Source: an uncultured Bacilli bacterium
GTDB taxonomy: Bacteria; Bacillota_I; Bacilli_A; RF39; UBA660
Direction: 5' to 3'
Assembly (NCBI GenBank): GCA_947626215.1
Contig: CANQRJ010000001.1
Span: 1 to 33,991, forward strand
DNA length: 33,991 nt
The notes under the pieces: generated by a model
The model's input: the letters and a program-made list of their open reading frames with translations, nothing else
Database searches by the model: none
What the model was told of the DNA's origin: nothing
Shown here: positions 3,720 through 26,338 of the stretch, piece after piece
How the letters are laid out: each line of letters begins with the position of its first letter
Numbering within the stretch: position 1 is the first letter of the stretch
Program-made: the position numbers and the translations under genes

Positions 3720-3725
3720 TGATTT

Positions 3726-4517
3726 ATGAATATTTATGAAGTTACTTTTAAAGATAAGGGAAAAGGTTATTATTTCAATGGCCATGATTTAAAAATTCCT
3801 AATAAAGTTACGGTGATTGTTGAAACAGAAAGAGGACTTCAGTTTGGTCGAGTTGTTGATAACACGAACCTTGAAGAAATTCATATTGACATGGCCAATT
3901 TGAAAGATATTGTTCGTATTGCTACTCGTAAAGATTATGAACAATATTTGAAAAATTGTAAGGATGGAGAAAATGCTTTAAAGGACGCTCGTAAGATTAG
4001 TGAAGAATTAGGTTTAGATATGAGATTTTTAGATGCTAGTTTTACCTTTGATCGAAAGCAACTTTTATTTAATTTTTATGCCGATGAAAGAGTGGATTTT
4101 CGTGAACTTGCTAAACGCTTAGCGAATATTTATAAAACTCGTATTGAACTTCGACAGGTAGGTGCTCGAGATAAGGCCGAACTTATTGGTGGTATTGGTA
4201 TTTGTGGTCGTAAACTTTGTTGTTCTTCTTGTCTTAAAAATTTGGAATCTGTTTCTATGAATATGGCAAAAAATCAAAATTTAGCTTTAAATCCATCTAA
4301 AATCAATGGTGCTTGTGGAAGATTACTTTGTTGTCTAGCTTATGAAGATGATGAATATGTTCGATGTGGTTATGGAATGCCTAGTGTTGGTGATAAAGTA
4401 AAAACTGTAGACGGAGAGGGACAAGTTTTAAGTGTTGATATTTTGAATCGAAAGTATAAAGTCATTGTTAATGAAGAATTAAGGGAGTTTTGTTTAGACG
4501 ATGAAAAAGACTCTTAA
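3726..4517 (+). CDS. ricT: PSP1-domain protein (RicT/YaaT, stage 0 sporulation family)
   Basis: 263 aa. Cys-rich stretches GICGRKLCCSSCL and GACGRLLCCLAYE are characteristic of the PSP1 C-terminal domain. It follows holB as in Bacillus. Confidence 0.85.
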   Translation: MNIYEVTFKDKGKGYYFNGHDLKIPNKVTVIVETERGLQFGRVVDNTNLEEIHIDMANLKDIVRIATRKDYEQYLKNCKDGENALKDARKISEELGLDMRFLDASFTFDRKQLLFNFYADERVDFRELAKRLANIYKTRIELRQVGARDKAELIGGIGICGRKLCCSSCLKNLESVSMNMAKNQNLALNPSKINGACGRLLCCLAYEDDEYVRCGYGMPSVGDKVKTVDGEGQVLSVDILNRKYKVIVNEELREFCLDDEKDS

Positions 4518-9808: not shown

Positions 9809-11353
9809 ATGGAAAAATATTATATTACAACGGCTATTGCTTATGCTTCTGCCAAACCTCATATAGGGAATACTTATGAAATTGTTCTTGCCGATGCCAT
9901 TGCGAGATATAAAAGGAGTAAGGGTTTTGATGTCTATTTTCAAACAGGTACGGATGAGCATGGAGAAAAAATTGAATTAAAAGCAAAAGAAAATGGAATG
10001 AATCCTCAAGAATATGTAGATTTTATTTCCCGGGAAATAAAAAGAATTTGGGATATTATGAATACAAGTTATGATAAGTTTGTAAGAACAAGTGATCCTC
10101 ATCATAAGGAAGTAGTAGGTCGTATTTTTGAAAAACTTTATCAACAAGGGGATATTTATTTAGATAAGTATGAAGGACTTTATTGTACTCCTTGTGAGTC
10201 TTTTTGGACGGAGACTCAACTTGTGGATGGAAAGTGTCCTGATTGTGGTAGAGAAGTTGAAATGAGAAGTGAAGAAGCTTATTTCTTTAAGTTATCTAAA
10301 TATCAGGAGCGTTTGATGGAGTACATTGAATCTCATCCTGATTTTATTGAGCCTGTTTCTCGTAAGAATGAAATGATTCAAAATTTTTTGAAACCTGGTT
10401 TACAAGATTTATGTGTTTCTCGTACAACTTTTGACTGGGGAGTGAAGGTTCCTTTTAATGATAAACATGTTGTTTATGTTTGGATTGATGCTTTATCCAA
10501 TTATATTACTAATATTGGGTATGATGTAGATGGTGGAAGTGAGGAATTTAAAAAGTGGTGGCCTGCCGATTTACATTTGATTGGAAAAGATATTATTCGT
10601 TTTCACACGATTTATTGGCCTATTCTTTTAATGGCTCTTGATTTACCTTTACCAAAACAAGTTTTTGGGCATCCTTGGCTTTTGTTTGGCTCTGATAAAA
10701 TGAGTAAAAGTAAAGGAAATATTATGTATGCCGATGATTTAGTTCAGTTATTTGGAGTTGATGCGGTTCGTTATTATGTGTTACATGAGATTCCTTTTCA
10801 AAATGATGGAACGATTACTTATGAACTTATTATGGAACGTATTAACAGTGATTTAGCAAATGTTTTGGGTAATTTAGTGAATCGGACACTTGCGATGGCA
10901 AAGAAATATTTTGATGGAAAAATAACGTATTCTAATATTTGTGAACCTGTGGATCAAGAACTTCTTACTTCTATTCATAGTTTAAGTAAAAGATTGGAAG
11001 AAAAAATGGATGGTTTAGAAATTGGTCTTGCTATTGATGAAATTTTTGATACTCTTCGTAAGTGTAATAAATATATTGATGATACGATGCCTTGGTCTTT
11101 AGCAAAGGAAGAGGAGAAAAAAGGTAGATTAGAAACCGTTTTATATCATTTACTCGAAGCGATTCGTCTTTGTGCGATAGAAATTACACCATTTTTGCCT
11201 GATACAGGAAAAGAAATGATGAGACAATTAGGAAATCAAGATAACACTCGCGACTTTGTCGATGAATTTATTTATGAAGTAATGGATCCAACTCCAATAT
11301 TTGCGCGTATCGATATTCCAAAAAAATTAGAAGAAATAGAGAGTTTAAAATAA
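9809..11353 (+). CDS. metG: Methionine--tRNA ligase (short form, no C-terminal tRNA-binding domain)
   Basis: MEKYYITTAIAYASAKPHIGN (HIGH-type motif), KMSKS motif, zinc knuckles CTPCES and CPDCG. The start was moved from the ORF-track 9734 because 9734-9808 is the T-box terminator region. ATG 9800 is an alternative. Confidence 0.93.
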   Translation: MEKYYITTAIAYASAKPHIGNTYEIVLADAIARYKRSKGFDVYFQTGTDEHGEKIELKAKENGMNPQEYVDFISREIKRIWDIMNTSYDKFVRTSDPHHKEVVGRIFEKLYQQGDIYLDKYEGLYCTPCESFWTETQLVDGKCPDCGREVEMRSEEAYFFKLSKYQERLMEYIESHPDFIEPVSRKNEMIQNFLKPGLQDLCVSRTTFDWGVKVPFNDKHVVYVWIDALSNYITNIGYDVDGGSEEFKKWWPADLHLIGKDIIRFHTIYWPILLMALDLPLPKQVFGHPWLLFGSDKMSKSKGNIMYADDLVQLFGVDAVRYYVLHEIPFQNDGTITYELIMERINSDLANVLGNLVNRTLAMAKKYFDGKITYSNICEPVDQELLTSIHSLSKRLEEKMDGLEIGLAIDEIFDTLRKCNKYIDDTMPWSLAKEEEKKGRLETVLYHLLEAIRLCAIEITPFLPDTGKEMMRQLGNQDNTRDFVDEFIYEVMDPTPIFARIDIPKKLEEIESLK

Positions 11354-11354
11354 G

Positions 11355-12104
11355 ATGTTTACTGATACACATTGTCATTTATATTCAGAAAATTATGATT
11401 CTCTTTCTTCTATTTTAGAAAATGCTAAGAAGTCTCATGTCTCTTTCTTTTTTGTTTCGGGATGTGATCAAAAGTCTAACGAAGAGGTTTTGCGTGTTTT
11501 ATCTTTTGATCCTTCTATTTATGGTTGTTTAGGAATTCATCCAGAGGAAGCAGATTCCTATAAAAATGAAGATCTTCTTTTTTTAAAAAGTCATTTAAAA
11601 GATGAAAAAGTGATTGCCATTGGAGAAATTGGCCTTGATTATCATTATACAAAGGAAAATAAAGAAAAACAAAAAGAGTTATTTTGTAGGCAACTCGAAA
11701 TAGCATCAGAAAATCATTTACCCGTCGTGATACATTCTCGTGATGCGACAGAAGATACAATTCAAATTTTAAAAAAATACCCAAATGTGAAAGGAGTCAT
11801 TCATTCTTTTTCTGGTAGTTTAGAGACGGCCCGAATATATATTAAAATGGGTTATAAATTAGGAATTAATGGAGTAGTTACTTTTAAAAATAGTCATTTA
11901 ATTCAAGTGGTGAGGGAAGTCATGGATTTCATTGTTTTAGAAACCGATTGCCCTTATCTTACACCGCATCCATACCGTGGAACAAAAAATGAACCTAAAT
12001 ATATTTATGAAATTGCCCAGTTTATTAGTTTGGAGACCGGGAAAAGTTTAGAAGAAATCTCAGAAATTACCAATAAAAATATTGCTCAAATTTTTGACAA
12101 ATGA
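11355..12104 (+). CDS. tatD: TatD-family metal-dependent DNase/hydrolase (YabD)
   Basis: 249 aa. Motifs DTHCHL, IGEIGLDY, VIHSRDA and ETDCPYL. It follows metG as in Bacillus. Confidence 0.9.
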   Translation: MFTDTHCHLYSENYDSLSSILENAKKSHVSFFFVSGCDQKSNEEVLRVLSFDPSIYGCLGIHPEEADSYKNEDLLFLKSHLKDEKVIAIGEIGLDYHYTKENKEKQKELFCRQLEIASENHLPVVIHSRDATEDTIQILKKYPNVKGVIHSFSGSLETARIYIKMGYKLGINGVVTFKNSHLIQVVREVMDFIVLETDCPYLTPHPYRGTKNEPKYIYEIAQFISLETGKSLEEISEITNKNIAQIFDK

Positions 12105-12142
12105 TAGCTTTTTGTGTTATGATGTTTGCGTAAGGTGATAGT

Positions 12143-12679
12143 ATGAGACATCGAAAAATTTTGATTCCATTACAGATTCTTATTTTGGGATTCCTAGTAT
12201 TGATTGCCAATATTAGTACCATTAAGGATTATTCTAGTGTTTCTAGTAATGCTAGTAATAGAGTTGTAAATTTAACTACGATGGCTTTAAAATTAGAAGA
12301 AGATATTAAAAATGATTTATATAGTGCGAAAGATGAATTTGTTGGTGACATTACAGGATATGGTGCCGATTGTCCTTTGTGTGGTGGAACTTTAGCTTGT
12401 AAACCTAGTTATTATGTGAAAGATGGAACAACTACTTATCCAGATTTAGATTATGGAATGGTACGTATTGTAGCCTCTAGTCAAAGTCTTCCTTGTGGTT
12501 CTATTGTACGTTTTCAATTACCTAAAATTTCAAGTGAACCTATCATCGCGATTGTATTAGATCGTGGAGTTTTAGGAAATGATTTGGATTTACTAATGGA
12601 AAGTGAAAATTATGCCAATTTGTATGCGGGAAGAACTACGACTAGTTATGATGTTTTAAGAACTGGATGGACTCGTTAG
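12143..12679 (+). CDS. 3D-domain (RlpA-like barrel) cell-wall-associated protein, YabE-like
   Basis: 178 aa. N-terminal TM/signal anchor, CPLCGG motif, and a C-terminal IAIVLDRGVLGNDLDLLM segment typical of 3D domains. It occupies the yabE position after yabD. Confidence 0.7.
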   Translation: MRHRKILIPLQILILGFLVLIANISTIKDYSSVSSNASNRVVNLTTMALKLEEDIKNDLYSAKDEFVGDITGYGADCPLCGGTLACKPSYYVKDGTTTYPDLDYGMVRIVASSQSLPCGSIVRFQLPKISSEPIIAIVLDRGVLGNDLDLLMESENYANLYAGRTTTSYDVLRTGWTR

Positions 12680-13511: not shown

Positions 13512-13619
13512 ATTTTAAAATGTAAATTTTTTGTCAATTTTTTTTACTTGGAGTTTTCTTTTTTTTCCTTTAATGTTACAGTTATGATGTAAGTATATAG
13601 CATTAAAGGAGGAATTTAT

Positions 13620-14276
13620 ATGGCTTTTGTTTACAATCCAGAGTCTGTTAAATCTTGGTCTAACAGTCTGGTAAAAAGTATTAATGGAGAGGAAGATAGT
13701 GTTTCTAGTTGTACTAGAAAGTTTTCTGAATTAATGAGTGAACTTGTAAAACCTGCAGTATGGACTGGATCTGCGGCTTATCAAAATTATCAAAATTTTT
13801 TAGAAACTCACAATGCTTTAGTGGCTTTCTCTAATGAATTTGGTGAGGCTTTTGCAACCACTATGAATGAAGTTGCTAAAAATGTTGCAGGATTAGAAGT
13901 TGCTAATTTAGGAACGGATACTAATGTTGCTACTACTTTTGGAGAACTTAGTTTTAATCAATTATCTCAAATGGCAGCCGAAAATATAAACAAAGAATTA
14001 GTTACTTATGATTATGAAGTAATAAGTAGCATCGGAAATTCTTTAAAGCAAATTAAAGAAGTTTTGGATGGAGTAAAAGTTAATTTGCTTTCAACTATTA
14101 ATCGTTTAAATAGTGGAGAAGGAATTTGGGATGGCGATGCGGCAGAAAGCGCAAAGACAACTTTATCAAACACTGCTAATACTAATATGACTAAAATTTA
14201 TAGTAACTTAGACATTTGTATTAGTAATATTTCTGAAGCTGCTATCGCGGCACAAAATGCAGATAAAGGAATGTAA
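13620..14276 (+). CDS. Tandem (fused) double WXG100-like protein, putative T7SS substrate
   Basis: 218 aa, about twice the WXG100 length. Two W-x-G motifs are each embedded in helical context: VWTGSAA (W48, nt 13761-13769) and IWDGDAA (W170, nt 14127-14135). Strong SD AAAGGAGG. First gene of the T7SS operon. Confidence 0.7.
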   Translation: MAFVYNPESVKSWSNSLVKSINGEEDSVSSCTRKFSELMSELVKPAVWTGSAAYQNYQNFLETHNALVAFSNEFGEAFATTMNEVAKNVAGLEVANLGTDTNVATTFGELSFNQLSQMAAENINKELVTYDYEVISSIGNSLKQIKEVLDGVKVNLLSTINRLNSGEGIWDGDAAESAKTTLSNTANTNMTKIYSNLDICISNISEAAIAAQNADKGM

Positions 14277-14317
14277 AAGTTTCTTTTTTAAAGAAAAGAT
14301 TTGAGAGTATTATTCTC

Positions 14318-14346
14318 TTTCTTTTCTTTTTTTTGTGTGTTATAAT
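14318..14346 (+). promoter_or_regulatory. Candidate extended -10 promoter upstream of essC
   Basis: TGtTATAAT at 14338-14346 with a weak -35 TTTCTT 17 nt upstream. It lies in the 95-nt gap after the double-WXG gene. Confidence 0.4.
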
Positions 14347-14371
14347 TTCTATAGAATAAGAGGGAAGTGAT

Positions 14372-17300
14372 TTGATGAAGTTACTTATTTTTTTAGAATC
14401 AACTAGAACTTATCAAATATTCTCTTTACCAACTGTTATTGATGGAAATTATTGGGTTCATATTTTAGATGAAAATGGTCAAATTAAAAACATTTTAAAT
14501 GTGTATGCTTTAGATGGACGTTGGGTTTATCAAGAAAATGGTCAAATTATTCCTTTGGAAGTTTATCGATTTTATTCTATTTCTTTTAAAGAAAAAATGT
14601 TATCTATTTATACATTACCTTTATATAATTCTAATTTGGAAATTTTTTTCTTTAAACAAATGAATCAATTTTGTTTAGGAAAAAAAGATTCTGATATTCT
14701 TTATGAAGATTATAATGGAGTTCTTACTTTTACAAAGAAGAATGAAAAATGGATTATGCAGTGCGATAAACCTGAAAATGCTATTTATGTAAATCAAAAA
14801 TTAACTTCTGGAAAATTATTGGAAACCGGAGATCATTTATTTGTTCATGGATTAAATTTATATGTTTTAGGTTCATTTTTTGCAATAGATAATCCGAATC
14901 AAAAACGAAAAATTATTTCTTCTACTATTCAATTGGTTCAAGTTCCTATGTTAAAAGAATCTTTAGATGATGATTTGGATGTTCTAAGTATATATGATAA
15001 AAAAGATTATTTTTATCGTTCTCCTAGATTTCGAAATGTTATAAATGAAGTTTCTGTGGTTATAGATGCTCCACCAAATAGTTCTATTAGGGAAGAGATG
15101 CCTTTTTTACTTCAAATGGGATCTATGCTTACCATGGGTATGAGTTCTATGGTAACTTTATTTGTTTCTGTAAGTGGAATTGTTAGTGGTGAAAAAACGA
15201 TTCAAAATACTTGGCCTAGTTTAGTTATAGGTGTTTCTATGATGGTAGGTATGTTATGCATTCCATTGTTTACGAAACGTTATCAGAAAAAACAATCTTT
15301 AAAAAATGAAAAAATTCGACAAGAAAAATATTTAGAATATTTAGCATTGAAAAAGAAAGAAATTTATCAAGTAATTGAAGATCAACAACAAGCTTTTAAT
15401 GCGAATAGTGTATCATTAGAACAATGTGAAGACATTATATTACATCATAGAAGAAATTTATGGGAAAGAAAGATTGAACATGATGATTTTTTAAGTGCTC
15501 ATATTGGAATTGGTGAAATACCTGCCAAAATTAAAATTCAGTTTCCAGAGGAACATTTTTCTTTAGATAATGATAATTTAAAAGCAGAAGTTCAAAAAAT
15601 GGCAAAAGAACCAAGAACTCTTAAAAATGTTCCAATTAATGTTTCATTTGTTCAAAAAAATATATGTGCTATTTTAGGAAACTTTGAATTAATTCCTTCT
15701 TTTTTGAATACCATTTTATTGCAATTTATTGCTTTTCAATCTTATGAAGATGTGAAATTTGTAATTTTTACTACTAAAGATTCTAAAGAAAAATGGGAAA
15801 GTTTTAAAAAAATTCCTTATTTATGGAATAATGAGAAGACTTTTCGATATTATGGAGAAACAAAAGAAGATATTTTTTCAATCTGTACTTTATTAAATGA
15901 AGAATTTCAAAATCGTGCGATGAATGAAGATACAAAATCTACGGATAAAGATTATAAAAATTTTTTACCTTATTATGTCATTATTACTGATAATTTTGAA
16001 GAAATAAGAGATTTTGATTTTATTAAAAATGTTTTAAAGTCGAAAGTAAATTATGGATTTAGTTTTCTTATTATTAATGAGCGACTAATGGGATTACCTA
16101 ATGAATGTAATTCTTTTATTAATGTAGATGCAAATCAATCAGGTATGATTGAAAATGAGTTATCATCAGATCGCCAACAAGTTTTTCAAGCAGAGTTTTT
16201 AAATAAATCCTTAGATCCATTGTTTCAAGAAATTTGTAATATTCCTATTGAGTTTACGAAATCAAAAGGGAACATGCCCGAAAGTATTAGTTTTTTGGAA
16301 TTATATAATGTTGGAAAAGTAGAACAGTTAAATGCTTTGAATCGATGGAAAACAAATCATTCTTATGAAACATTAAAAGCTCCTGTTGGAGTAGATCAAA
16401 ATGGGGGACTTTTCTTTTTGGATTTACATGAAAAGGCTCATGGGCCACATGGTCTTATAGCAGGGATGACAGGTTCTGGTAAATCTGAATTTATTATTAC
16501 CTATATTTTATCTATGGCACTTAATTATCATCCATATGATGTTTCTTTTGTACTTATTGATTATAAGGGTGGTGGACTTGCAGGTGCTTTTGAAAATAAA
16601 GATTTAGGAATTAAACTTCCTCATTTAGCAGGGACTATTACCAATTTGGATACGGTAGAAATTGGTCGTAGTTTAGCTTCTATTGAAAGTGAATTAAAAA
16701 GAAGACAAAAGTTATTTAATGAAGCAAGAGAACAAACGAATGAAAGCACGATTAATATTTATAAATATCAAAAATTATATCATCAAGGAATTGTAAAAAC
16801 TCCTGTACCACATTTGTTTATTATTAGTGATGAATTTGCAGAGTTAAAAAGTCAACAACCAGAATTTATGGCTCAGTTAATTTCTACGGCTAGAATAGGT
16901 CGTTCTTTAGGAGTTCATTTAATTTTAGCAACTCAAAAACCAAGTGGAGTAGTCGATGCTCAGATATGGAGTAATTCTAAATTTCGTGTTTGTTTAAAAG
17001 TTCAAGATCGTAGTGACAGTATGGATATGATTAAGGTTCCTGATGCGGCGGCTTTATCTACCGTTGGAAGGTTTTATTTACAAGTTGGATATAATGAATT
17101 TTTTGCAATGGGACAATCTGCTTGGGCAGGAGCTCCATATTATGAAATGGATGAAAGAAAAACAAAGATTGATTCATCGATTCATTTTGTAGATAATGTG
17201 GGGAAAGTAATTAAGTCTGTAGAACAGGAAAATCAAAAAATGAAATCATCTTTTAAAGGTGAGGAATTACCAGCTATTTTAAAATATATTTCTGATTTAG

Positions 17301-18931
17301 CTAAAAAAGAGCAGATTCATGTGGATCCTTTATGGCTTTCTAGTATTCCTGAATTTATTACGATTGGGACTTTGGAGAAAAAATATAGTTATAAAAGTAT
17401 TCCTTTTGTTTTGAATGAAGTAATTGGTGAATATGATTCTCCTTCTACACAAAGTCAACATTTACTTACTCTTCCTATTTCAAAAGATGGTAATGTTTTA
17501 CTTTATGGTGCAAGTGGAAGTGGAAAAGAAAACTTTCTTACAACTTTTATACTTTCAACTATTTTACATCATACTCCAGAAGAAGTTCAGTTTTATTTAT
17601 TAGATTTTGGAGCAGAAACCCTTACAATGTTTCAGGATGCTCCTCATGTTGGAGATGTCGTTTTTTCTTCTGATAATGAAAAAGTAACCAATTTATTTAA
17701 AATGATTAATGAAATGGTACAAACTCGTAAATCAAAATTTATGAATTTTGGTGGTACTTTTGAATCTTATAATGCTAAAAATGATAAAAAAGAAGCTAAT
17801 GTAATTATCGTTTTAAATAATTATGAGAATTTTAAAGAATTATATGAAAATTTTGAAGAAGATTTGATTTCTCTTACTAGAGAAGCTACAAAATATGGTA
17901 TTTATTTTATTTTAAGTGTTTTGAGTTCTAATAGTATTCGTATTAAATTGTTTCAAAACTTTAAATCGATTTATTCTTTACAATTAAACAATGAAGATGA
18001 ATATACAAATATTTTAGGAAATGTACATAAAACTTTTCCTTCTAAGAAATTTGGTAGGGGCATTACTCGCATACAAGGAGAAATTTATGAATTTCAAACG
18101 GCTTATGTATGTGAAAAAGAACATATTGTAGACACTGTCCGAGATTTTTGTTTAAAACTTAAAAAATATTATTCTAGTTACGCTAAAAAAATACCAGTGT
18201 TGCCTCAAAAAGTTACTTATTCTGCTCTTTCACCAATACAATATTCTTTGGAAGATTTTGTAGTGGGTGTAGAAAAAGATTCTTTAGAATTATCTAGATG
18301 TAATTTTAAATCTAAAACAGTTTCTTTTGTTACGGCTTTAGAATTAGATAATTTAGAAAATTTTACTTACGGATTAATTGATTTCTTTCAACCTTTATCT
18401 AATCATTTACTATATGTCTTAGATATGGGTTCTTCTCTTGATCCTAGAAAAGTTCATTCTAAATATTACTATTCTAAAAAAGTTTCTGATGTATATCAAA
18501 GTGTCTGCGATTATATTGATAAACTAGCTCTTGATTTTGCAAATAATCAAAAAGATGAACAACGATTAGAAAAGTATACCCATTTAACTCTTATTATTTA
18601 TGGTATTGAAGACTTTTTCAAACTTATAAAAGAAAATATGGAAAAATTTGAAAAGTTGTTACAAAATGGTCATGATCTAGAAAAATTAAATATTATTTTA
18701 GTCGATGCAAGTTACTCCATTAAGAAATATGAAATGGATTCATGGTATCGTAATTTTGTGATGAGCAATCATGGTATTTGGGTAGGAAGTGGTATTACGG
18801 AGCAATTTGTTTTAAAACTTGCTAAAACTCCAAAATATTGTTATGAAGAAATTTCAAATCAATATGGTTATGTTGTCAAAAATGGAGTGCCTGTTCTTGT
18901 AAAATTATTAGAAGGTGATAAGAGTGAATAA
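14372..18931 (+). CDS. essC: Type VII secretion FtsK/SpoIIIE-family ATPase EssC/YukB
   Basis: 1519 aa. FHA-like N-terminus, two TM helices (about aa 245-305), D1 Walker A GMTGSGKSE (nt 16463-16486) with Walker B LFIISDEFAEL, D2 Walker A GASGSGKE (nt 17507-17530). No GxxGxGK[ST] is recognisable in the last ~300 aa (degenerate D3). ATG 14375 is an equally likely start (TTG 14372 in the track). Confidence 0.93.
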   Translation: MMKLLIFLESTRTYQIFSLPTVIDGNYWVHILDENGQIKNILNVYALDGRWVYQENGQIIPLEVYRFYSISFKEKMLSIYTLPLYNSNLEIFFFKQMNQFCLGKKDSDILYEDYNGVLTFTKKNEKWIMQCDKPENAIYVNQKLTSGKLLETGDHLFVHGLNLYVLGSFFAIDNPNQKRKIISSTIQLVQVPMLKESLDDDLDVLSIYDKKDYFYRSPRFRNVINEVSVVIDAPPNSSIREEMPFLLQMGSMLTMGMSSMVTLFVSVSGIVSGEKTIQNTWPSLVIGVSMMVGMLCIPLFTKRYQKKQSLKNEKIRQEKYLEYLALKKKEIYQVIEDQQQAFNANSVSLEQCEDIILHHRRNLWERKIEHDDFLSAHIGIGEIPAKIKIQFPEEHFSLDNDNLKAEVQKMAKEPRTLKNVPINVSFVQKNICAILGNFELIPSFLNTILLQFIAFQSYEDVKFVIFTTKDSKEKWESFKKIPYLWNNEKTFRYYGETKEDIFSICTLLNEEFQNRAMNEDTKSTDKDYKNFLPYYVIITDNFEEIRDFDFIKNVLKSKVNYGFSFLIINERLMGLPNECNSFINVDANQSGMIENELSSDRQQVFQAEFLNKSLDPLFQEICNIPIEFTKSKGNMPESISFLELYNVGKVEQLNALNRWKTNHSYETLKAPVGVDQNGGLFFLDLHEKAHGPHGLIAGMTGSGKSEFIITYILSMALNYHPYDVSFVLIDYKGGGLAGAFENKDLGIKLPHLAGTITNLDTVEIGRSLASIESELKRRQKLFNEAREQTNESTINIYKYQKLYHQGIVKTPVPHLFIISDEFAELKSQQPEFMAQLISTARIGRSLGVHLILATQKPSGVVDAQIWSNSKFRVCLKVQDRSDSMDMIKVPDAAALSTVGRFYLQVGYNEFFAMGQSAWAGAPYYEMDERKTKIDSSIHFVDNVGKVIKSVEQENQKMKSSFKGEELPAILKYISDLAKKEQIHVDPLWLSSIPEFITIGTLEKKYSYKSIPFVLNEVIGEYDSPSTQSQHLLTLPISKDGNVLLYGASGSGKENFLTTFILSTILHHTPEEVQFYLLDFGAETLTMFQDAPHVGDVVFSSDNEKVTNLFKMINEMVQTRKSKFMNFGGTFESYNAKNDKKEANVIIVLNNYENFKELYENFEEDLISLTREATKYGIYFILSVLSSNSIRIKLFQNFKSIYSLQLNNEDEYTNILGNVHKTFPSKKFGRGITRIQGEIYEFQTAYVCEKEHIVDTVRDFCLKLKKYYSSYAKKIPVLPQKVTYSALSPIQYSLEDFVVGVEKDSLELSRCNFKSKTVSFVTALELDNLENFTYGLIDFFQPLSNHLLYVLDMGSSLDPRKVHSKYYYSKKVSDVYQSVCDYIDKLALDFANNQKDEQRLEKYTHLTLIIYGIEDFFKLIKENMEKFEKLLQNGHDLEKLNIILVDASYSIKKYEMDSWYRNFVMSNHGIWVGSGITEQFVLKLAKTPKYCYEEISNQYGYVVKNGVPVLVKLLEGDKSE

Positions 18932-19175
18932 GGTTTTAGTTTCTATTTATGTGATTAAATTAGATCAGGAGTATGAAATATTTTTGCCACCTAATAAAAA
19001 AATTGTTGATGTTATTTGTATGATTGCAAAATCAGTTCATGAAATAAGTAATGAAGTGTTTCCTTTAAATTATCAAAATTTGTTATATGATTGTGAACAA
19101 AATATTTTTTATGATCCTCAAAAATCGGTGAAAGAGGCCGGCTTAAAAAATGGAAAACGATTGATTTTCTTTTAG
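18924..19175 (+). CDS. esaB: YukD/EsaB-like ubiquitin-fold T7SS accessory protein
   Basis: About 83 aa, overlapping the essC stop. SD AGGTGA lies 5 nt before GTG 18924 (the track starts at GTG 18915). Small beta-grasp-like sequence ending GLKNGKRLIFF, in the conserved position after essC. Confidence 0.6.
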   Translation: MNKVLVSIYVIKLDQEYEIFLPPNKKIVDVICMIAKSVHEISNEVFPLNYQNLLYDCEQNIFYDPQKSVKEAGLKNGKRLIFF

Positions 19176-19208
19176 TTTCATGTTATCTTTATAAGGGAGA
19201 ATCGAAAT

Positions 19209-19511
19209 ATGGACATTAAAATAGATGAAGTAGAAATGAAAAATTTAAGTAGTAATATTCATAGACAGGCCGAAAGTATTCGAAAACTTTGTCAGTCTTT
19301 AAATTCTGTTACTACTTCTCTTACACCTTATTGGAAAGGCGAGACTTTTGTTCAATTTTCTTCTAAAGTAATTGGTGATAGTGATTCTTATCAAGCGAAT
19401 CTTACGAAATTTTCTAAAGAGTTGGACGATATTGCGACGTATATGGAACAATCTATTGCTCTTTATGAAAAAATGGATTCTACGTATCATTCTAAAAAGA
19501 TAGATTTGTAG
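19209..19511 (+). CDS. WXG100 family protein (EsxA-like)
   Basis: 100 aa, helical, with central YWKGETFVQF (W-x-G at aa 42-44) as in EsxA NWEGQAFSRF. Confidence 0.8.
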   Translation: MDIKIDEVEMKNLSSNIHRQAESIRKLCQSLNSVTTSLTPYWKGETFVQFSSKVIGDSDSYQANLTKFSKELDDIATYMEQSIALYEKMDSTYHSKKIDL

Positions 19512-19519
19512 GTGAGATT

Positions 19520-19816
19520 ATGGATTTTTTTGATTATAATTATGTAGAAAATGCTTTATTGGAGTATCAATCTTTAAAAAATCAATTAGAACAAATTTTA
19601 GATATTTTAGAAAATCTTGAGAAACAGTTAAGTGAAGAACTTTATTGGTCTGGTGTTGGTTGTGATTTTGTAAAACAAAAATATTCTTCTTTACTTCATA
19701 ATGCATCCGATTTAAGAAGTGCAATGACTAATTTATGTGCATATGTTTCAGGTGTGATTGAAAATCATCGATTAAGTGAAGAAAAGATTGCTAGTTTGTT
19801 TGGAGGTTTTTCATGA
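19520..19816 (+). CDS. WXG100-like small helical protein (possible Lap1/DUF3130-type effector targeting factor)
   Basis: 98 aa, helical, with YWSGVG (W-x-G at aa 43-45). It starts 8 nt after the preceding gene and lies upstream of the giant substrate. Confidence 0.6.
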   Translation: MDFFDYNYVENALLEYQSLKNQLEQILDILENLEKQLSEELYWSGVGCDFVKQKYSSLLHNASDLRSAMTNLCAYVSGVIENHRLSEEKIASLFGGFS

Positions 19817-20205
19817 ATGATGTGGATGCAGATCGTCTAATAGAAAGTCTTACTTTGATGAAAGAGTCTCTTACAACTTCTATGGAAGAAAGTATTTTAA
19901 AAGAGATTCAAGATTCTCAGTCTTTTCAGGTTCAAGCGGCTAGTGTTTTAATTTCTGCAAATCAAAATTTGATATCTAAATATGAAGATTTAAGACAATT
20001 AATTCAAAAATATATTGGTGTTGGAAATGATATAAAAAGTTACCAAAATTTGGATAAAGAAGTTGCCAGACTAGAAAGAGCCATTGATAGGGAATTAAGT
20101 GAAGATGAACCAAGTTATAGTTATATTCGTTCTTTAAGAAATAAAGTTCGTTCTTGTGAAAAACAAATGAGAGAATTAAAGTTAAAAATAGAATCTAGTA
20201 TTTAA
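19813..20205 (+). CDS. Small coiled-coil protein (possible Lap2-type effector adaptor)
   Basis: 130 aa, all-helical and charged, with no W-x-G. ATGA overlap with the upstream gene. It sits immediately 5' of the giant substrate gene, as LXG-associated helical proteins do. Confidence 0.4.
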   Translation: MNDVDADRLIESLTLMKESLTTSMEESILKEIQDSQSFQVQAASVLISANQNLISKYEDLRQLIQKYIGVGNDIKSYQNLDKEVARLERAIDRELSEDEPSYSYIRSLRNKVRSCEKQMRELKLKIESSI

Positions 20206-20221
20206 ACAATAGGAGGTATTT

Positions 20222-23200
20222 ATGAAAATTATTCATTATAATTATTTAAATAATTCTTATAAAAATTTTGTAAATGCCTCTAGAAGTTTTGAAACAGATA
20301 AGTATTCTAAGTTTTCCAATAGTTATGTTACTACGTGTTCTAATGTCTATGTTTCTAGGATGAAGTCTGTTTTATCTAATAAGTATAAAGAAATGCTTGA
20401 AGCTTATCAAAAAATTGATGAGTGGTGGCTTCATTATCTTAATGATGTTCGTGCGGTTGAAAATGCAATTTCTCAAAGTTTCTATGGCTTTGAAGAATCT
20501 TCTCTTGCTTCTTTTGTTGGTGGTAAACTTTTGAATCCTACTGTTACAAAAACATCATTATCTGGCAAATTAACGCTTGCTACAGTGAATTCTGAACTCT
20601 ATTCTAACGCTTTTATGAGTATGGGTTCTGCTAGTCCTTTTTTAGCACAGTCCATGTTTGAACAGAAAGTTTTGTTTTCTAAACAAGAAAAAGAAATGAT
20701 TTTAAATAAATTTTTTAATGGATCTAATTTAACGGCAAGTGAAGTCAATAAAATTCAAAGTACTCTTACTCATATGTATGATGAAGACATGCAAAAAGCA
20801 AATCAAAAGTGTGAAGCATCTCAAACAAAATATAATGATATGGCTAAGGTATTTTCTAAATTAACGGGTTCATCTTTTGACATAGATAAAATGAAATCTT
20901 TAAAAAGTGAAGCTCAACAAGAGGCTCTTCGTATGGCAAAAGAGTATAAAAGTAAATCTTTTAGGTGGAATGATTTTGATTTTGATGAAAAAGGAATTCA
21001 TTTAACTAGAGATCAATTTGAAAAAATGTCTGTGACAGAGTTAAGTGAAGTTCTTTTGAAAAATGATATGACTATCGGAACTCAATATAAACGTTTCAAT
21101 TCGATTTTAAGTGGTACACAGTATGGCAGTTTAGAAAATTTTTTGAAAAAAATGTCTACTCTTCAAGATAATTATTCTAAAGATTTAGAGGCAAAAAATA
21201 AAATTGAGGCTCAAGTGAAAGGATTGTCCTATGCTTTAATGAGCCAGACAGAAGATTATAAGAATTTTAAACCTAAAAGTGTTTCTAAAGATGGTATAAC
21301 AGATGTCACGACTGTTATTCAAAATGATCAAAATATTGCTACTCAACAAACGATTGTAGATTATTCTAAGTATGTGAAAACTTATGGGGAAGTGGATCCT
21401 CTTAGTTTTACCTCTCTAGCAATGCAAATGTATGGAGACAGTATTGAAGTACAAGGGGTAACCAATCCTGAATTATTAAAAGAACTTGCTAAAGTTCAAG
21501 GAATTCAAAGTTTAAGTGATATGGGTAAATATTATCAATTTGCTTATCAAAATTTTGGCTCAGAAAAAGCAAATAAATATCTTACAGACTATGAAAGTGA
21601 AATTCATCAATACTGTGGAGAAGTCAATGCAAATGAGTTTTTAAATCATTTATCTAGTTTAAATGAAGTAAATAGAGTTGAGGCCGTGACCAATCATTTA
21701 AAGGTTACTGGAAAAGGTTTATCTGAAGGTATGATGGGATTTTTTTCAAATTTGGGATATCTTTTAGAAAGTCCTTTAGAGGAAAATCGTACTGTGAGTG
21801 CAAAAGAATATGAAAATATGTATATCGTTCAGGCATTGTCTAGTAAAGAATCAAAAATGAAAAATGGTCTTCTTACGAAAAATTTAAAGGGAGATGTTTT
21901 TAGCACATCTGATATTATTGATTATACAAAAGATTATGGAGCTTTAACGGAACATAATTACCAAATTAGTGAGTCGATTGGAAATATGTTACCTAGCATT
22001 GCCGTTTCGGCTATTAATCCTTTTGTAGGATCTCTTGCTTTGGGAGCGAGCGCGGCAGGAGGTTCTTATCACAGTGCAATGACGGAAGGGTATTCTGTTC
22101 AAAAGTCTATGTTATATGGGGTTGCATCCGGTGCAAGTGAAGTCTTAATGGAGAAGGCATTAGGAGGTTTACCATTATTAAGTGATACGAAAGTAGTTAG
22201 TTTAAAAACTATGGCTCAAGCTATGGGTAAAGAATTTAATGAAGAATTTATTCAAACTTATGTCGATGCAGGTGCAAGTTCTCTTATTTTACAAAAAGAT
22301 TTTGATTTAGCAAGTACTTCAAAAGAAGCTTTACAATCTGGGATTTATGGGGGTATTACAGGTGGAATCATGAATCTTCCTAGCTTAGCTATTAATAGTA
22401 GTAGTATTAAAATGATTGATAATCAGATAAAAGCTGGTAAAGTTTCTCAAGAAGAAATTGTTCAAAGTTTTCATGAATTAATTCCAGAAACACAACAAAT
22501 GAATTATGATGAAATTTTGCAAGAATATACAACTACGGCAAAAGATGTTACTTTAAGTCTTGTACAAGCTAACGGTAAAACAGTAGCCTCTTCTGGAGTA
22601 AGTACTTTATTAGGAAATATGCTTAAAAATTCTCAAAATGCTTTGCATGTAAAAATGAATCAAATAAGGGATAAAAATATTGTTTCACTTAATTTAAATC
22701 CTATTCAAAATTTAGAACCTGCTTTTGTTGGAGTTCAAAATATTACTGACGTGGAGCAAGTTATTGTAAATAATTCTGATGTGAATAAATTATTAGGGAA
22801 GACTGCTTTGTCTTCTTTACCAAAGGCAGTTGTTGGTATCGCGACTTCATTTGCATCTAGGCCATTTTTCTTTCGATATACGCCAGTTACAACGTCTAAT
22901 AGTTTTTCTCAGAAAATATTAAATGAAGGATTATATCATTTTACAAGTGAAAAAAGTATTTCTAAAATTCAAGAATCTGGATATATAAAAGCCTCTGATT
23001 ATTTTACTTCGTATGGAAATAAAAAAAGTTTTTTCTTTGCAGGTATTCCTGATATAGAAGATGTTGCTATGAATACAAGTAGTTTGGCTGATAAACGAGT
23101 AGCTGTCAAATTGAAAATAGATCCAAGTGAATTACAACAGTTTCGTTATAGAGATTTAGTAGATAAGGCTGTTTCTCATGATGGAAATTATGTATTTAAT

Positions 23201-26200
23201 CCAGATCATTTTTCAATTGCTTACTTAGGGCTTGCTGAAGAAAATGGAAAAGTAGTTTATAAAGAAATATCAAAATCAGAGTATGATCAATATCAGTCTA
23301 ATGTATCTAAGGCAAAAAAAGAGTCTTTAGTGAAGAAAGCGGAGACGTTTATTATAGGGGTTGCTTCGGACTGGACATATACAAAAAATAGATTTCAAAG
23401 AATAGCAAGTGCCTTTAAAAATACAAATATTGATAAAACGGGAGCAATCTATGCTAATAGTACATCAATGCTTTTAGAGAATATTCAACAATTTAATTTA
23501 GAAGATACCTTAGATTTAGAAGAAGAAGGTCTCCCAATTAGAGATTCAGATCATTTTACTAATTTAGAAGATACCCTAGATTTAGAAGAAGAAGGCCTTC
23601 CAATTAGAGATTCAGATCAAATTACAAATTTAGAAGATACCCTAGATTTGGAAGAAGAAGGTCTTCCAATTAGAGATTTAGACCAATTTACAAATTTAGA
23701 AGATACCCTAGATTTGGAAGAAGAAGGTCTTCCAATTAGAGATTCAGATCAATTTACAAATTTAGAAGATACTCTAGATTTAGAAGAAGAAGGCCTTCCA
23801 ATTAGAGATCCAGATCGAATTACAAACTTAGAAGATACTTTAGATATGGAAGAAGAAGGTCTTCCAATTAGAGATTCAGATCAAATTACAAACTTAGAAG
23901 ATACTTTAGATATGGAAGAAGAAGGTCTTCCAATTAGAGATTCAGATCAAATTACAAATTCAGAGTCGTTAATAACTAATAGAGAAAAAGCTATATTTAA
24001 AAATGATGAGTTGTTATCTACTTCGAAGTTTTTAGAATTATCTCTGGAAAATAAAAAAGAATATATTCAACGTGCAAGTATTGGGCAAATTAATGAATTA
24101 ATATCGTCTGATATTTCTTATGATGATGAAACAAGTCAATTATTTTATACAAAAATATTTCATAATCAGGAAGAGATTTTTTATGATAAAATTTTTGGAA
24201 AAGAAAAATATTCTAATATTGAAAAATATGTTTGTAAACATCCAGAATTATATTCTGATTTACATGATGAATCTTTAATAACATTAATCGATCATAATTC
24301 TAAAAATACAGATTTACTAAATGAATTATATAGACGTATTGATGAAGGTTCTCCTATTTTTATGAAAAATTATGAAGTAGAGGAATTTTATGGAAGGAAA
24401 AGAAGAATTATTGGTAGTGTATTTAATGCTATGTCACAAGAATATCAAAAAAAGGTAAGAGATTCTATCATTGAATTATCAAAAAAGATTTCTCCTGATT
24501 TAAAGAAATTAAGTTTAAGTGGTTATGATATGTTTGATCAAGCTCAATTCTTTTATGCTCTTCAAAACAATACAATAGATGAAGTTGGTATTCAATTTTT
24601 AAATAAATTGTGTTCTGAAAATAAATATAAATTTAAAGGAATGAATTATTCCTTGCTTAATTCTTCTTACTTAAATGATTTAGGAGAAGATTTTGTAAAA
24701 TCTATTATTAATAAAGCTACTTTAGCTAATCAAATTGTTTATTTGCATAATTACAATCCTAGTTTATATCAAGCTTTTGTTAAGTTTGTTCAAAATAGCT
24801 ATTCTGATAATTCATTATATACATTTTATCCGAAAGTTACAAACATGCTATCTTTTTTTATTAAAAATGAACATGCTTTAGTAAATTTAGATTCAAAATT
24901 ATTATTAAGTGATTCTTTTACAAATTATGTATTATATCTTGCATCAAATGCTTATTCAAATTCAATAAAGTTATCTGCATTTTCATCTGATTATAATACA
25001 AAATTTTATGAATTATGTGATGATAAATTTTTAAATTTATATCTAAATTCGTTTACAGATGTCAACGATTTGAAAAAGATTTTTTATAATAAATATTTTT
25101 CAAGTGATGTTTTAAATATTAAATCTTTTATTACTAAATATGAAACTAGTCTAGATTCTATTTCAAAATATGATGAAGAAAGTGTTGCTATTATAAAATA
25201 TTTAAAATTTATTGAATCTATAAATGATAAAGAAACATTAAAAAATTTATATGACGAGTGTAATATTCGAATTTCTTCAGAAGAACTTTTATATATTGAT
25301 GATGCTTTAAGGAAAGCTTACGTAAAAACCTATATTGAAAGTTTAGAAAAAACTAATCATACTATAGAGTCTTTAATAAAATCTGGTCAAAATACTTCTA
25401 CAATTAATTTTGAGGGTAAAAATGTTACGGTTGTTGATGTTGGTAATCAGTTTTCTTTTATAGTTCGTAGTAGTGATTCTGGACTTGTTACGAATGGATT
25501 AGAACATGTATCTTCTTATAAAGATGCTTATTTTCAAGCGGATGATCCAACTAATCATATATTGGCGGCTACCTATATAAATGAAAGAAATATTGGAAGT
25601 TGCCCGGTTAATAATGAAGGCGTTTTATATGGCTTTACTAAGTTGAATGACTCTCAAATAGTTATGATGGCACCTAATGATATTAATTCTAATATTAATA
25701 GTGTAGGATATTCTTCTGGGGCAAATCAACGTTTTGTTACGGCTGATGATATGTCTAGTTATACAAGAAGAATTTATAATGAAGTAGATTTAGAAAAAAA
25801 TGGAACTTTACCGGATTATGTTATTATATATAATGATTCTACTGATACACAGATTCAAAGTGCTTATAAAGCGGCTATAGAATGGAATATTCCAGTAATA
25901 CGCATTGATAAAGTTGATGTGGCTACTCATCAGTCCAATTTTATTAATTCTCTTATGGAAAATTTTAAGGAAACAAAGGATGTATCTTATTTAGATCAAG
26001 CTTTGGACTTATATGAATCTAATTGTAGTGGATATAAATTTAATTCTTTTGTAAAAGAAGGAAATGAAGATCGAACAAGTGGAATTAATAATCAAACTAT
26101 TTATGATTTAGGACTATTTAATTCTGTTACTATTGAGGATGATATTTTGGATTATATTCATGAATTAACGACGATGGATTCTAATCAAAAAGAAGTGGAT

Positions 26201-26338
26201 GAATTAATAAAAGTACTTGATAATGTTAAATATAAATATGATTTAGCAAACGAATCAAATAACAATTTATTGGCTAATACTAAATCGAATTTAGATTTAG
26301 AGTCTTTAGAAGCCATATTAGAAGAAATTAGGAGGTAA
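20222..26338 (+). CDS. Giant (2038 aa) multi-domain putative T7SS substrate / polymorphic-toxin-like protein with non-canonical LXG-like N-terminus
   Basis: Uninterrupted 6.1-kb ORF with SD AGGAGG and no signal peptide. It has a helical N-terminus and lies in the operon behind essC, WXG and adaptor-like genes. Internal Gly/Ala/Ser-rich segment at aa 588-726, LYHFTSE..I.ESG signature at aa 904-920, 7x22-aa acidic repeats at aa 1092-1245, and unassigned C-terminal domains. Confidence 0.6.
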   Translation: MKIIHYNYLNNSYKNFVNASRSFETDKYSKFSNSYVTTCSNVYVSRMKSVLSNKYKEMLEAYQKIDEWWLHYLNDVRAVENAISQSFYGFEESSLASFVGGKLLNPTVTKTSLSGKLTLATVNSELYSNAFMSMGSASPFLAQSMFEQKVLFSKQEKEMILNKFFNGSNLTASEVNKIQSTLTHMYDEDMQKANQKCEASQTKYNDMAKVFSKLTGSSFDIDKMKSLKSEAQQEALRMAKEYKSKSFRWNDFDFDEKGIHLTRDQFEKMSVTELSEVLLKNDMTIGTQYKRFNSILSGTQYGSLENFLKKMSTLQDNYSKDLEAKNKIEAQVKGLSYALMSQTEDYKNFKPKSVSKDGITDVTTVIQNDQNIATQQTIVDYSKYVKTYGEVDPLSFTSLAMQMYGDSIEVQGVTNPELLKELAKVQGIQSLSDMGKYYQFAYQNFGSEKANKYLTDYESEIHQYCGEVNANEFLNHLSSLNEVNRVEAVTNHLKVTGKGLSEGMMGFFSNLGYLLESPLEENRTVSAKEYENMYIVQALSSKESKMKNGLLTKNLKGDVFSTSDIIDYTKDYGALTEHNYQISESIGNMLPSIAVSAINPFVGSLALGASAAGGSYHSAMTEGYSVQKSMLYGVASGASEVLMEKALGGLPLLSDTKVVSLKTMAQAMGKEFNEEFIQTYVDAGASSLILQKDFDLASTSKEALQSGIYGGITGGIMNLPSLAINSSSIKMIDNQIKAGKVSQEEIVQSFHELIPETQQMNYDEILQEYTTTAKDVTLSLVQANGKTVASSGVSTLLGNMLKNSQNALHVKMNQIRDKNIVSLNLNPIQNLEPAFVGVQNITDVEQVIVNNSDVNKLLGKTALSSLPKAVVGIATSFASRPFFFRYTPVTTSNSFSQKILNEGLYHFTSEKSISKIQESGYIKASDYFTSYGNKKSFFFAGIPDIEDVAMNTSSLADKRVAVKLKIDPSELQQFRYRDLVDKAVSHDGNYVFNPDHFSIAYLGLAEENGKVVYKEISKSEYDQYQSNVSKAKKESLVKKAETFIIGVASDWTYTKNRFQRIASAFKNTNIDKTGAIYANSTSMLLENIQQFNLEDTLDLEEEGLPIRDSDHFTNLEDTLDLEEEGLPIRDSDQITNLEDTLDLEEEGLPIRDLDQFTNLEDTLDLEEEGLPIRDSDQFTNLEDTLDLEEEGLPIRDPDRITNLEDTLDMEEEGLPIRDSDQITNLEDTLDMEEEGLPIRDSDQITNSESLITNREKAIFKNDELLSTSKFLELSLENKKEYIQRASIGQINELISSDISYDDETSQLFYTKIFHNQEEIFYDKIFGKEKYSNIEKYVCKHPELYSDLHDESLITLIDHNSKNTDLLNELYRRIDEGSPIFMKNYEVEEFYGRKRRIIGSVFNAMSQEYQKKVRDSIIELSKKISPDLKKLSLSGYDMFDQAQFFYALQNNTIDEVGIQFLNKLCSENKYKFKGMNYSLLNSSYLNDLGEDFVKSIINKATLANQIVYLHNYNPSLYQAFVKFVQNSYSDNSLYTFYPKVTNMLSFFIKNEHALVNLDSKLLLSDSFTNYVLYLASNAYSNSIKLSAFSSDYNTKFYELCDDKFLNLYLNSFTDVNDLKKIFYNKYFSSDVLNIKSFITKYETSLDSISKYDEESVAIIKYLKFIESINDKETLKNLYDECNIRISSEELLYIDDALRKAYVKTYIESLEKTNHTIESLIKSGQNTSTINFEGKNVTVVDVGNQFSFIVRSSDSGLVTNGLEHVSSYKDAYFQADDPTNHILAATYINERNIGSCPVNNEGVLYGFTKLNDSQIVMMAPNDINSNINSVGYSSGANQRFVTADDMSSYTRRIYNEVDLEKNGTLPDYVIIYNDSTDTQIQSAYKAAIEWNIPVIRIDKVDVATHQSNFINSLMENFKETKDVSYLDQALDLYESNCSGYKFNSFVKEGNEDRTSGINNQTIYDLGLFNSVTIEDDILDYIHELTTMDSNQKEVDELIKVLDNVKYKYDLANESNNNLLANTKSNLDLESLEAILEEIRR
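23495..23956 (+). repeat. Seven tandem in-frame 66-bp repeats encoding NLEDTLD[LM]EEEGLPIRDSDQ[IF]T
   Basis: Read directly from the sequence. Units start at 23495 with period 66. Units 6 and 7 are identical and the others differ at a few mostly synonymous positions. Confidence 0.98.

Follow-up and report, generated by a model that had tools for sequence, protein, structure and literature searches.

We describe a gene, here called dWXG, in a stretch of 33,991 nucleotides (nt) from an uncultured Bacilli bacterium (contig CANQRJ010000001.1, forward strand, positions 1-33,991; G+C content 28%), which we refer to as the window. dWXG encodes a conserved single-chain WXG100 protein of a small group of uncultured gut Bacilli: as judged from sequence profiles, both of its halves are hairpins of the WXG100 superfamily, related to each other through an old internal duplication. 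WXG100 proteins are universal substrates or components of type VII secretion systems (T7SS). They are believed to be read as folded dimers, by a composite signal to which one chain contributes its WxG loop and the other its C-terminal arm. We propose that dWXG is probably a dimer of the EsxA/EsxB type contained in one chain, the core WXG100 component or substrate (the equivalent of EsxA/TsxA) of a T7SSb-related system with EssC and a YukD-like protein, found in uncultured, low-GC, spore-forming gut Bacilli.

The gene has the coordinates and the general form that an original prediction, made from the letters of the window alone, had given it: 218 amino acids (aa) with two W-x-G turns 122 residues apart. 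Its parts are listed below; counts of conserved residues refer to 63 aligned full-length family members, and helices are those of an AlphaFold2 (AF2) model.

13620..14276, forward strand: tandem-WXG100 gene dWXG, 218 aa plus stop, ATG start.

13605..13612, forward strand: Shine-Dalgarno-like AAAGGAGG, 7 nt upstream of the dWXG ATG, by direct reading of the sequence.

13620..13910, forward strand: N module, residues 1-97, ESAT-6-like by profile matches; helix 7-42 with a kink at 23-27, W-x-G loop, helix 51-97.

13761..13769, forward strand: W48-T49-G50, forming the turn in the N module, with W in 61 of the 63 members and G in all 63.

13893..13913, forward strand: L92-E-x-x-N96-L-G at the end of helix 2, aligned with A211xxxD215; L in 51, E in 55 and N in 53 of 63 members.

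13911..14012, forward strand: linker, residues 98-131, of lower AF2 confidence, with a short helix at 117-122, ending in the conserved Y130-D-Y.

14013..14273, forward strand: C module, residues 132-218, CFP-10/EsxB-like by profile matches; helix 132-160, W-x-G loop, helix 173-215.

14127..14135, forward strand: W170-D171-G172 turn of the C module; W in 53 of 63 members, F in 6, G in 60.

14250..14264, forward strand: A211-Q-N-A-D215 near the C terminus, column for column on Y-S-R-A-D of CFP-10 (HMMER, 6j19_B and 3fav_A).

The two motifs, PAVW48TGSAA and EGIW170DGDAA, are the only W-x-G in the protein. From the amino-acid composition of the genes in the window, 0.05 such motifs would be expected per 218 aa, with a probability of about 0.001 for two or more. 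Outside dWXG, the genes of the window have W-x-G in essC (twice in 1519 aa), in two 100-aa WXG100-like genes and nowhere else.

The homology of the two modules becomes visible only when many relatives are brought in. Profiles of the two halves, built from 45 diverse representatives with the chain split at residue 111, align with each other in hhalign at a probability of 93.7% (E 1.9e-7) over 95 columns and in register, such that Y5-N-P falls on Y130-D-Y, VW48TG on IW170DG and L92ExxN96 on A211xxxD215. A repeat run reproduced this alignment. A shallow alignment of 21 sequences gave a probability of only 4.5%, and pairwise BLAST of one half of the window protein against the other was not significant (E 0.12). 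With 16% identity in the profile alignment, the halves are thus divergent and not the product of a recent duplication, as had been anticipated.

Each half also finds its own relatives among WXG100 proteins. Against all sequences of the PDB, the best natural matches of the C-half profile are CFP-10/EsxB of M. tuberculosis (6j19_B, 3fav_A and 1wa8_A; E 6e-5 to 1e-4), followed by EsxB of B. anthracis over the whole hairpin (E 6e-4 to 1e-3), and 4j41_A is also among its matches. The N-half profile has H. pylori HP0062 at the top (3fx7 and 2gts; E 7e-4 to 2e-3) and also matches the ESAT-6-like MAB_3113 (4i0x_B; E 2.5e-3). Member by member, and counting E values up to 0.1, Pfam WXG100 is matched by 31 of the 45 C halves (best E 1e-8) and by 8 of the 45 N halves (best E 3.5e-5). 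In the window protein itself, the C half matches TIGR03930 at E 6e-6. These matches bear out the claim that the chain holds two WXG100 modules. The second W-x-G is not incidental because it is conserved and lies within a WXG100-like half.

How widespread is this arrangement? A word-indexed protein search returned 21 clusters (at 90% identity) reaching down to 51% identity, all of 217-219 aa save for one truncated sequence. A profile search of 1.84 billion representative proteins extended the family to 70 clusters (at 50% identity), 56 of them with E <= 1e-10, and most of the 70 are 207-230 aa long and matched end to end; about 60 distinct clusters have lengths of 207-250 aa. The nearest relatives come from metagenome-assembled genomes (MAGs) labelled 'uncultured Bacilli', from rabbit and human gut. 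Comparison with the two closest orthologues (84-85% identity, rabbit-gut MAGs) gives a ratio of nonsynonymous to synonymous substitution rates (dN/dS) of 0.11-0.13 for the whole gene, 0.13-0.16 for residues 1-89, 0.12 for the linker (90-131) and 0.09-0.10 for residues 132-218. Purifying selection acts across the whole length of dWXG, linker included.

Some features did not hold across the family. The linker is the best-conserved part of the protein in the close subfamily only; across the 45 representatives, only E93 and N96 stand out. A disulfide between C31 and C200 was also considered and dropped: the two cysteines do not strictly co-vary, both being present in 37 members, C200 alone in 18 and C31 alone in 2, and members without C31 carry hydrophobic residues in its place. 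A few relatives (proteins P0034, P0041, P0044, P0047 and P0050, and genes at 2992-4512 of locus L029 and 9995-10819 of locus L013) have 55-290 extra C-terminal residues beyond the tandem WXG100 core. Their tails are of low complexity, rich in G, S, T, N and A; the AxxxD arm is not C-terminal in these members, and a scan of the tails of five extended proteins found no recognised domain. Long multi-stretch matches to P0080 and P0091 were treated as spurious, as were those to the repeat proteins P0083 and P0087. In P0080 and P0091 a unit of about 90 residues, which by eye resembles poly-HAMP, recurs many times almost unchanged.

Could the fusion be an artefact? This reading, in which two adjacent genes were joined by a sequencing or assembly error, or the second W-x-G is incidental, draws on two relatives in which an in-frame TAA interrupts the linker. 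In L021 (essC, the gene itself at 1603-2265, and wxgA) a single TAA replaces the linker codon after ...F-E-T-G-N; it overlaps an AAGGAG, and a TTG 9 nt later opens a complete C module, so this could be a functional two-gene version. The single TAA in L022 (341-994) has no start codon nearby and the second W-x-G is gone, which looks more like decay. Both are very distant relatives known from one contig each, without bearing on the window gene, and they are the only short homologues informative on splitting. The contig of L024 has low coverage (1.9x) and shows a deletion or frameshift. That of L023, 689 bp long, may be chimeric: by eye, its initial ~80 bases resemble the start of a 16S rRNA gene in reverse complement. 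Most other half-size homologues are fragments or assembly problems. Instead of two adjacent genes, the window has a single unbroken open reading frame (ORF) that contains the two motifs. So do 24 of 24 complete loci of relatives, drawn from genome and metagenome collections and independently assembled, and the ~60 protein clusters. Because all 24 loci carry it, the fusion is not a sequencing artefact; the constraint on the linker and the conservation of the second W-x-G within a WXG100-like half point the same way. The artefact reading, to which we give next to no credence, is already refuted for the window and for relatives down to ~37% identity. The survey of split and fused homologues, which had been put forward as a check, thus comes out on the side of the fused form.

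What would such a chain look like? AF2 predicts two hairpins, with a mean predicted local distance difference test (pLDDT) of 81.6 and a predicted template modelling score (pTM) of 0.78 from the 21-sequence alignment, rising to 90.9 and 0.86 with 63 sequences. The predicted helices span residues 7-22, 28-42, 51-97, 132-160 and 173-215, both W-x-G motifs lie in loops between long helices, and the linker (98-131) has a pLDDT of 54-77. The WXG100 hairpin, a helix-turn-helix of about 100 residues with a central W-x-G, thus occurs twice, once in each module, and does not describe the chain as a whole. One of the hairpins superposes on EsxA of T. curvata (4lws_A) with a target-normalised TM-score of 0.74 and a root-mean-square deviation of 1.7 A.

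The chain most likely folds on itself into the kind of head-to-tail four-helix bundle that WXG100 dimers normally build from two chains. We favour this packing because a pTM this high speaks for a confident placement of the two hairpins relative to each other; because the bridge residues assigned by DSSP (4-5, 47, 130 and 170-171) fit an arrangement in which each module touches the opposite WxG loop with its N-terminal segment, for which head-to-tail is the only possibility; and because the conserved linker, 34-42 residues long, suits a run back along a bundle of ~60 A. Structure prediction thus supports the single-chain bundle that had been expected, with head-to-tail packing as its probable form.

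One consequence of such a fold would concern the export signal. In WXG100 dimers the export arm (the YxxxD/E region) of one chain is placed beside the WxG loop of the other, and together they make up a bipartite signal (PMC10765036, PMC9811218). In dWXG, A211 is present in 56 and D215 in 47 of the 63 members, and the chain ends 3 residues past the motif. The equivalent L92ExxN96 of the N module is, on sequence grounds, an internalised 'export-arm' motif: since helix 2 of the N module runs on into the linker, a free arm is left on the C module alone. We envision the following scenario. A WXG100 hairpin gene would long ago have been duplicated and the copies then fused, the first giving the ESAT-6-like N module and the second the CFP-10-like C module. 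The linker of ~34 residues would return along the bundle to connect them. The bundle would be polarised, with W48-x-G beside the free A211xxxD215 arm at one end, the candidate end for recognition by EssC, and W170-x-G beside the N terminus and the buried L92ExxN96 at the other. A single composite WxG plus YxxxD-like signal would thus be shown to EssC, and the two halves would be held at a fixed 1:1 stoichiometry. That the fused design affects how the signal is presented to EssC, as had been suggested, is plausible from the positions of these motifs.

dWXG opens a compact T7SS island, whose remaining components in the window are:

14290..14334, forward strand: A/U-rich hairpin followed by a run of five U, between dWXG and essC; fold of -13.8 kcal/mol, z = -2.6.

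14372..18931, forward strand: essC, FtsK/SpoIIIE-type T7SS ATPase of 1519 aa; TIGR03928 at 988.7 bits (cut-off 778.4) and Pfam FtsK_SpoIIIE.

18915..19175, forward strand: 86-aa gene (ub86), probable EsaB/YukD-like ubiquitin-fold component, syntenic with essC in 12 loci.

19209..20205, forward strand: small helical genes wxgA (100 aa, WXG100), wxgB (98 aa) and orf130.

20222..26338, forward strand: gene of a 2038-aa protein, after the WXG-like genes and before DUF4176.

26719-27030: DUF4176 gene, downstream of the 2038-aa gene.

The island spans 13620-27030 and is bounded by ksgA (ending at 13511) and yabG (30366). It is preceded by metG, tatD, a 3D-domain gene and ksgA and followed by yabG, yabP and yabQ, and because of this flank we take the host to be a spore-forming member of the Bacillota. 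Between the island and yabG, on the minus strand (29455-30171), adjacent ORFs of 162 and 74 aa look by eye like one Fic/DOC-type gene split in two, with FIDGNKRVAML in the 74-aa part. Of the core set of the T7SSb (esaA, essA, esaB, essB, essC), the island has only essC and the YukD/EsaB-like gene: no EssB/YukC-, EsaA/YueB- or EssA-like gene was found in the window island or in the corresponding metG/tatD-bounded stretch of L013 (2561-11246), such genes being possible elsewhere in the genome.

A gap of 95 nt separates the dWXG stop from essC. A consensus terminator scan, which requires G-C pairs, found no terminator-like site and missed the hairpin at 14290-14334, and the promoter-like sites that a consensus scan finds do not exceed the number expected from shuffles. 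The hairpin may, rather weakly, be a leaky terminator giving dWXG an abundant transcript of its own; it is reminiscent of esxA, which is transcribed partly on its own (PMC10765036). The 86-aa gene begins at a GTG within the 3' end of essC, with an overlap of 17 nt (18915-18931), which suggests translational coupling; in related loci the two genes likewise overlap or stand close together. Its assignment is based on Pfam YukD matches in 4 of 11 family members (best E 0.0017); the window copy has no Pfam YukD match, and a PDB profile search with this gene gave no match.

Farther downstream, wxgA matches Pfam WXG100 at 32.5 bits, above the cut-off of 27.3, and wxgA, wxgB and orf130 are likely Lap-like partners of the large protein that follows. 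They co-occur with dWXG in 16 loci. The 2038-aa protein is presumed to be a T7SS effector; it has no match in Pfam or NCBIfam. Inside its gene (23495-23964) are 7.1 tandem copies of a 66-bp unit with 93% matches, encoding acidic 22-aa repeats NLEDTLDLEEEGLPIRDSDQIT.

essC accompanies dWXG in 15 of the 19 genome loci and also in L020, L021 and L022, with a gene order that varies from clade to clade. The clade of the window has dWXG-essC-ub86-wxgA-wxgB-orf130-toxin, a second clade ub86-essC-dWXG-wxgA-wxgB-c5-DUF87 ATPase, and L020 dWXG-wxgA-wxgB-c5-DUF87-DUF4176-toxin-...-ub86-essC. The 'esxA position in front of essC' that had been assigned to the gene is therefore right for the window and its clade; in other clades dWXG stands after essC or heads a longer operon ending in essC. 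In the closest relative, L001, a 502-aa ORF (10839-12347) that by eye resembles an insertion sequence transposase lies between dWXG and essC, in a gap of 1.8 kb. A sister clade carries an additional ATPase of the HerA type, 610-710 aa long (Pfam DUF87, E 6e-19), mostly directly after dWXG-wxgA-wxgB-c5 (L003 1808-3880, L008 11738-13873 and L020 11856-13721, also L005, L009, L010 and L018) and absent from the window; it would be a second ATPase of the FtsK/HerA superfamily in a T7SS locus. Soluble Ser/Thr kinases of ~245 aa (Pfam Pkinase, E 1e-30) also occur near these T7SS loci (L010 6030-6773, L017 13301-14050, and a 236-aa ORF of cluster c19 in L016), kinases being a recurring theme in newly described T7SS subtypes.

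We can now weigh what kind of protein dWXG is. A first question is whether two WXG100 hairpins are the right description, or whether the chain is a stand-alone helical domain like that of LXG proteins or of EspB and the PE/PPE proteins. There are faint hints of such a kinship: 7 of the 45 N halves give a weak Pfam LXG match (best E 6e-5), a weak EspB_PPE match has an E of 0.064, and EspB itself combines WxG and YxxxD in one polypeptide (PMC9811218). The window protein is significant for neither family, with no LXG match and only 13.8 bits for EspB_PPE against a cut-off of 27.7, and Foldseek aligns it with EspB (4wj1) at an E of 1.1 and a TM of 0.24. Its helices, of 29-47 residues, are WXG100-sized, as compared with an LXG shaft of ~180 A (PMC10765036); most members have no C-terminal toxin domain, and the halves are homologous to each other. 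We consider this reading very improbable, and already disfavoured. A second question is whether the two modules pair within a chain or between chains. In the latter case an N module would pack on a C module contributed by a different chain, and the protein would function as domain-swapped dimers or filaments. Filaments or pores are formed by some Esx proteins. Oligomers and filaments are reported for EsxE/EsxF (abstract of PMC7810871), the flexible linker (34-42 residues, pLDDT 54-77) would permit a swap, and an AF2 run on the monomer is blind to the difference. Nevertheless, that run places both hairpins confidently in one chain (pTM 0.86), and the conserved length of the linker fits a crossing of the ~60 A bundle, which leaves pairing between chains a rather improbable alternative to the bundle within one chain.

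The more serious competitor concerns function. dWXG might be a targeting factor or adaptor of the Lap/EsxB-D type, part of the effector module and acting in a pre-secretion complex with wxgA, wxgB, orf130 or c5 and the large toxin, instead of an EsxA-like core protein. In most loci wxgA-wxgB-c5 directly follow dWXG and precede a toxin or the DUF87 ATPase, in L015 and L016 this block lies beside a toxin of ~2000 aa with no essC within 10 kb, and hhalign finds all four WXG modules (N half, C half, wxgA and wxgB) mutually related. Against this, the conservation of dWXG is close to that of EssC and far above that of the toxins and WXG-like genes around it: between clades, dWXG is 46-58% identical and EssC 39-63%, while wxgA, wxgB and orf130 drop to 25-38% or become undetectable. 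In clades where EssC is at 39-41%, dWXG still has its 46-58%. Because it is conserved much like EssC while these neighbours diverge, dWXG looks core-like and not specific to one effector. Besides, each locus has one copy of dWXG irrespective of the toxin, essC and the YukD-like gene stand between dWXG and the toxin module in the window clade, and the island, bounded by housekeeping genes, offers no other candidate EsxA. We therefore regard the adaptor as unlikely, although it is the strongest of the alternatives; were it correct, interest in dWXG would fall to that of one more WXG-like helper protein.

Several observations nonetheless weigh against a single-chain EsxA/EsxB-type core component. 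The window protein stays below the family thresholds: TIGR03930 matches the whole chain in two stretches (E 2e-8) at 34.2 bits with a cut-off of 44.85, and Pfam WXG100 (PF06013) matches the C half (E 3e-3) at 18.1 bits with a cut-off of 27.3. The N half has no match in the Pfam scan and, taken alone, is a weak WXG100 match (E 0.11), so the idea that hidden Markov models would recognise each half separately held below threshold for the C half and weakly for the N half. Whole-chain Foldseek searches of the PDB with two models returned nothing at E <= 0.001; the best matches were designed and Dps four-helix bundles (E at least 0.026, TM about 0.3), and there is therefore no solved single-chain equivalent. 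The C-terminal motif is AxxxD and not YxxxD, an alanine replacing the tyrosine, and the end of the chain has neither the xxhxxxH part of HxxxD/ExxhxxxH nor the hydrophobic tail that CFP-10 uses to bind EccC. With tyrosine and tail missing, recognition may differ from that of CFP-10 by EccC. In L015 and L016, dWXG accompanies wxgA-wxgB-c5 and a large toxin, with no essC within 10 kb as noted above, and may therefore have an accessory role. Finally, the host organisms are uncultured. The data show the ORF, its conservation, the kinship of both halves with WXG100 proteins and with one another, the link to essC and the predicted secondary structure; the role of core substrate is one that we infer, together with the head-to-tail packing and the single export signal per bundle.

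On balance, we hold to the single-chain EsxA/EsxB-type core component as the probable reading. A bolder version of it, which we put forward only tentatively and would not yet bet on, is that dWXG is the sole core WXG100 protein of an undescribed minimal T7SS subtype of uncultured spore-forming gut Bacilli, made of EssC, a YukD-like protein and a single-chain EsxA/B, without EssA, EssB and EsaA and, in one clade, with the HerA/DUF87 ATPase; dWXG would be exported as a monomeric four-helix bundle by way of one arm. If so, the 'dimer' requirement of the T7SS would be one of bundle geometry and a single composite signal, and not of two chains. More generally, a natural and conserved single-chain form would fix the stoichiometry and the orientation of the hairpins and leave one arm free. 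dWXG would thus be a natural means of finding out which end of the bundle is read by EssC and whether a bundle needs more than one signal. Structural studies with EssC would also gain a WXG100 bundle that is soluble and monomeric. It also marks a compact T7SS variant in little-studied gut Bacilli, with the usual T7SSb membrane partners missing from the island.

How does dWXG compare with known systems? We found no description of a natural tandem, double or fused WXG100 protein in the full-text literature, a result that leaves room for other fusions catalogued without comment, for instance among InterPro architectures, which were not queried. The systematic WXG100 census was limited to proteins of 85-135 aa (PMC3935865). 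Among the subtypes T7SSc to T7SSj, which have one or two separate WXG100 cores, no fused TsxA is described (PMC11217815), and the island without EssB, EsaA and EssA may represent a minimal subtype outside the T7SSa to T7SSj of Garrett et al. 2024. Comparable systems are the T7SSe, with TseA and TseA2, and the T7SSg, with TsgA1 and TsgA2, each with two separate core WXG100 proteins (Garrett et al. 2024, PMC11217815). Like the dWXG system, they belong to Bacillota, have two non-identical WXG100 units and are without the canonical T7SSb membrane partners. In the minimal gene set of the T7SSg, the WXG100 proteins are joined by a ubiquitin-like protein, an ATPase and a single additional protein (PMC11217815); its TsgC has no N-terminal region, whereas the window EssC has ~210 residues ahead of its TIGR03928 match.

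Other helical T7SS proteins also share features with dWXG. LXG toxins with their Lap partners share the layout of wxgA, wxgB, orf130 and the large protein; dWXG itself differs from LXG toxins in its hairpin-sized helices and its lack of a toxin domain, and does not combine an N-terminal LXG domain (PF04740) with a C-terminal toxin domain. EspB, of about 460 aa, differs from dWXG in that no significant similarity of sequence or fold links the two: dWXG consists of two WXG100 units, and its halves are not homologues of PE and PPE. EspB of ESX-1 is still a precedent for carrying the WxG and YxxxD parts of the signal in one helical-bundle polypeptide (PMC9811218, PMC10765036); it is PE/PPE-like, has its C-terminal region removed and forms heptamers (PMC9811218).

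This leaves the classical WXG100 dimers. The EsxB/EsxA (CFP-10/ESAT-6) heterodimers of the T7SSa, like dWXG as predicted, put two different hairpins into one four-helix bundle, with a free C-terminal arm on one hairpin only and a gene linked to an FtsK-type ATPase. The C module aligns with CFP-10 over its full length, AxxxD on YxxxD, and the N module matches an ESAT-6-like protein. EsxB and EsxA are encoded by two genes, whereas dWXG is one polypeptide, ESAT-6-like first and CFP-10-like second; the actinobacterial gene order, esxB-esxA, is the reverse of this order of modules. dWXG also differs from CFP-10 in having Ala for Tyr, in lacking a tail of at least 7 residues after the motif, and in its low-GC Bacillota host with a T7SSb-type EssC. 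Like EsxA of the T7SSb (EsxA of S. aureus, YukE of B. subtilis), dWXG in the window is placed immediately ahead of the machinery genes, where it may have a leaky terminator to itself; it also has the conservation of a core component and the company of an EssC that passes TIGR03928 and of a YukD-like gene. The T7SSb EsxA is a protein of ~100 aa that forms a symmetric homodimer with two identical arms (PMC10765036), whereas dWXG, with 218 aa and two modules, has covalently joined halves of ~16% identity, a single free arm, and an island without essA, essB and esaA. dWXG would thus work like an EsxB/EsxA heterodimer and sits where the T7SSb EsxA sits, while departing from the defining features of both.

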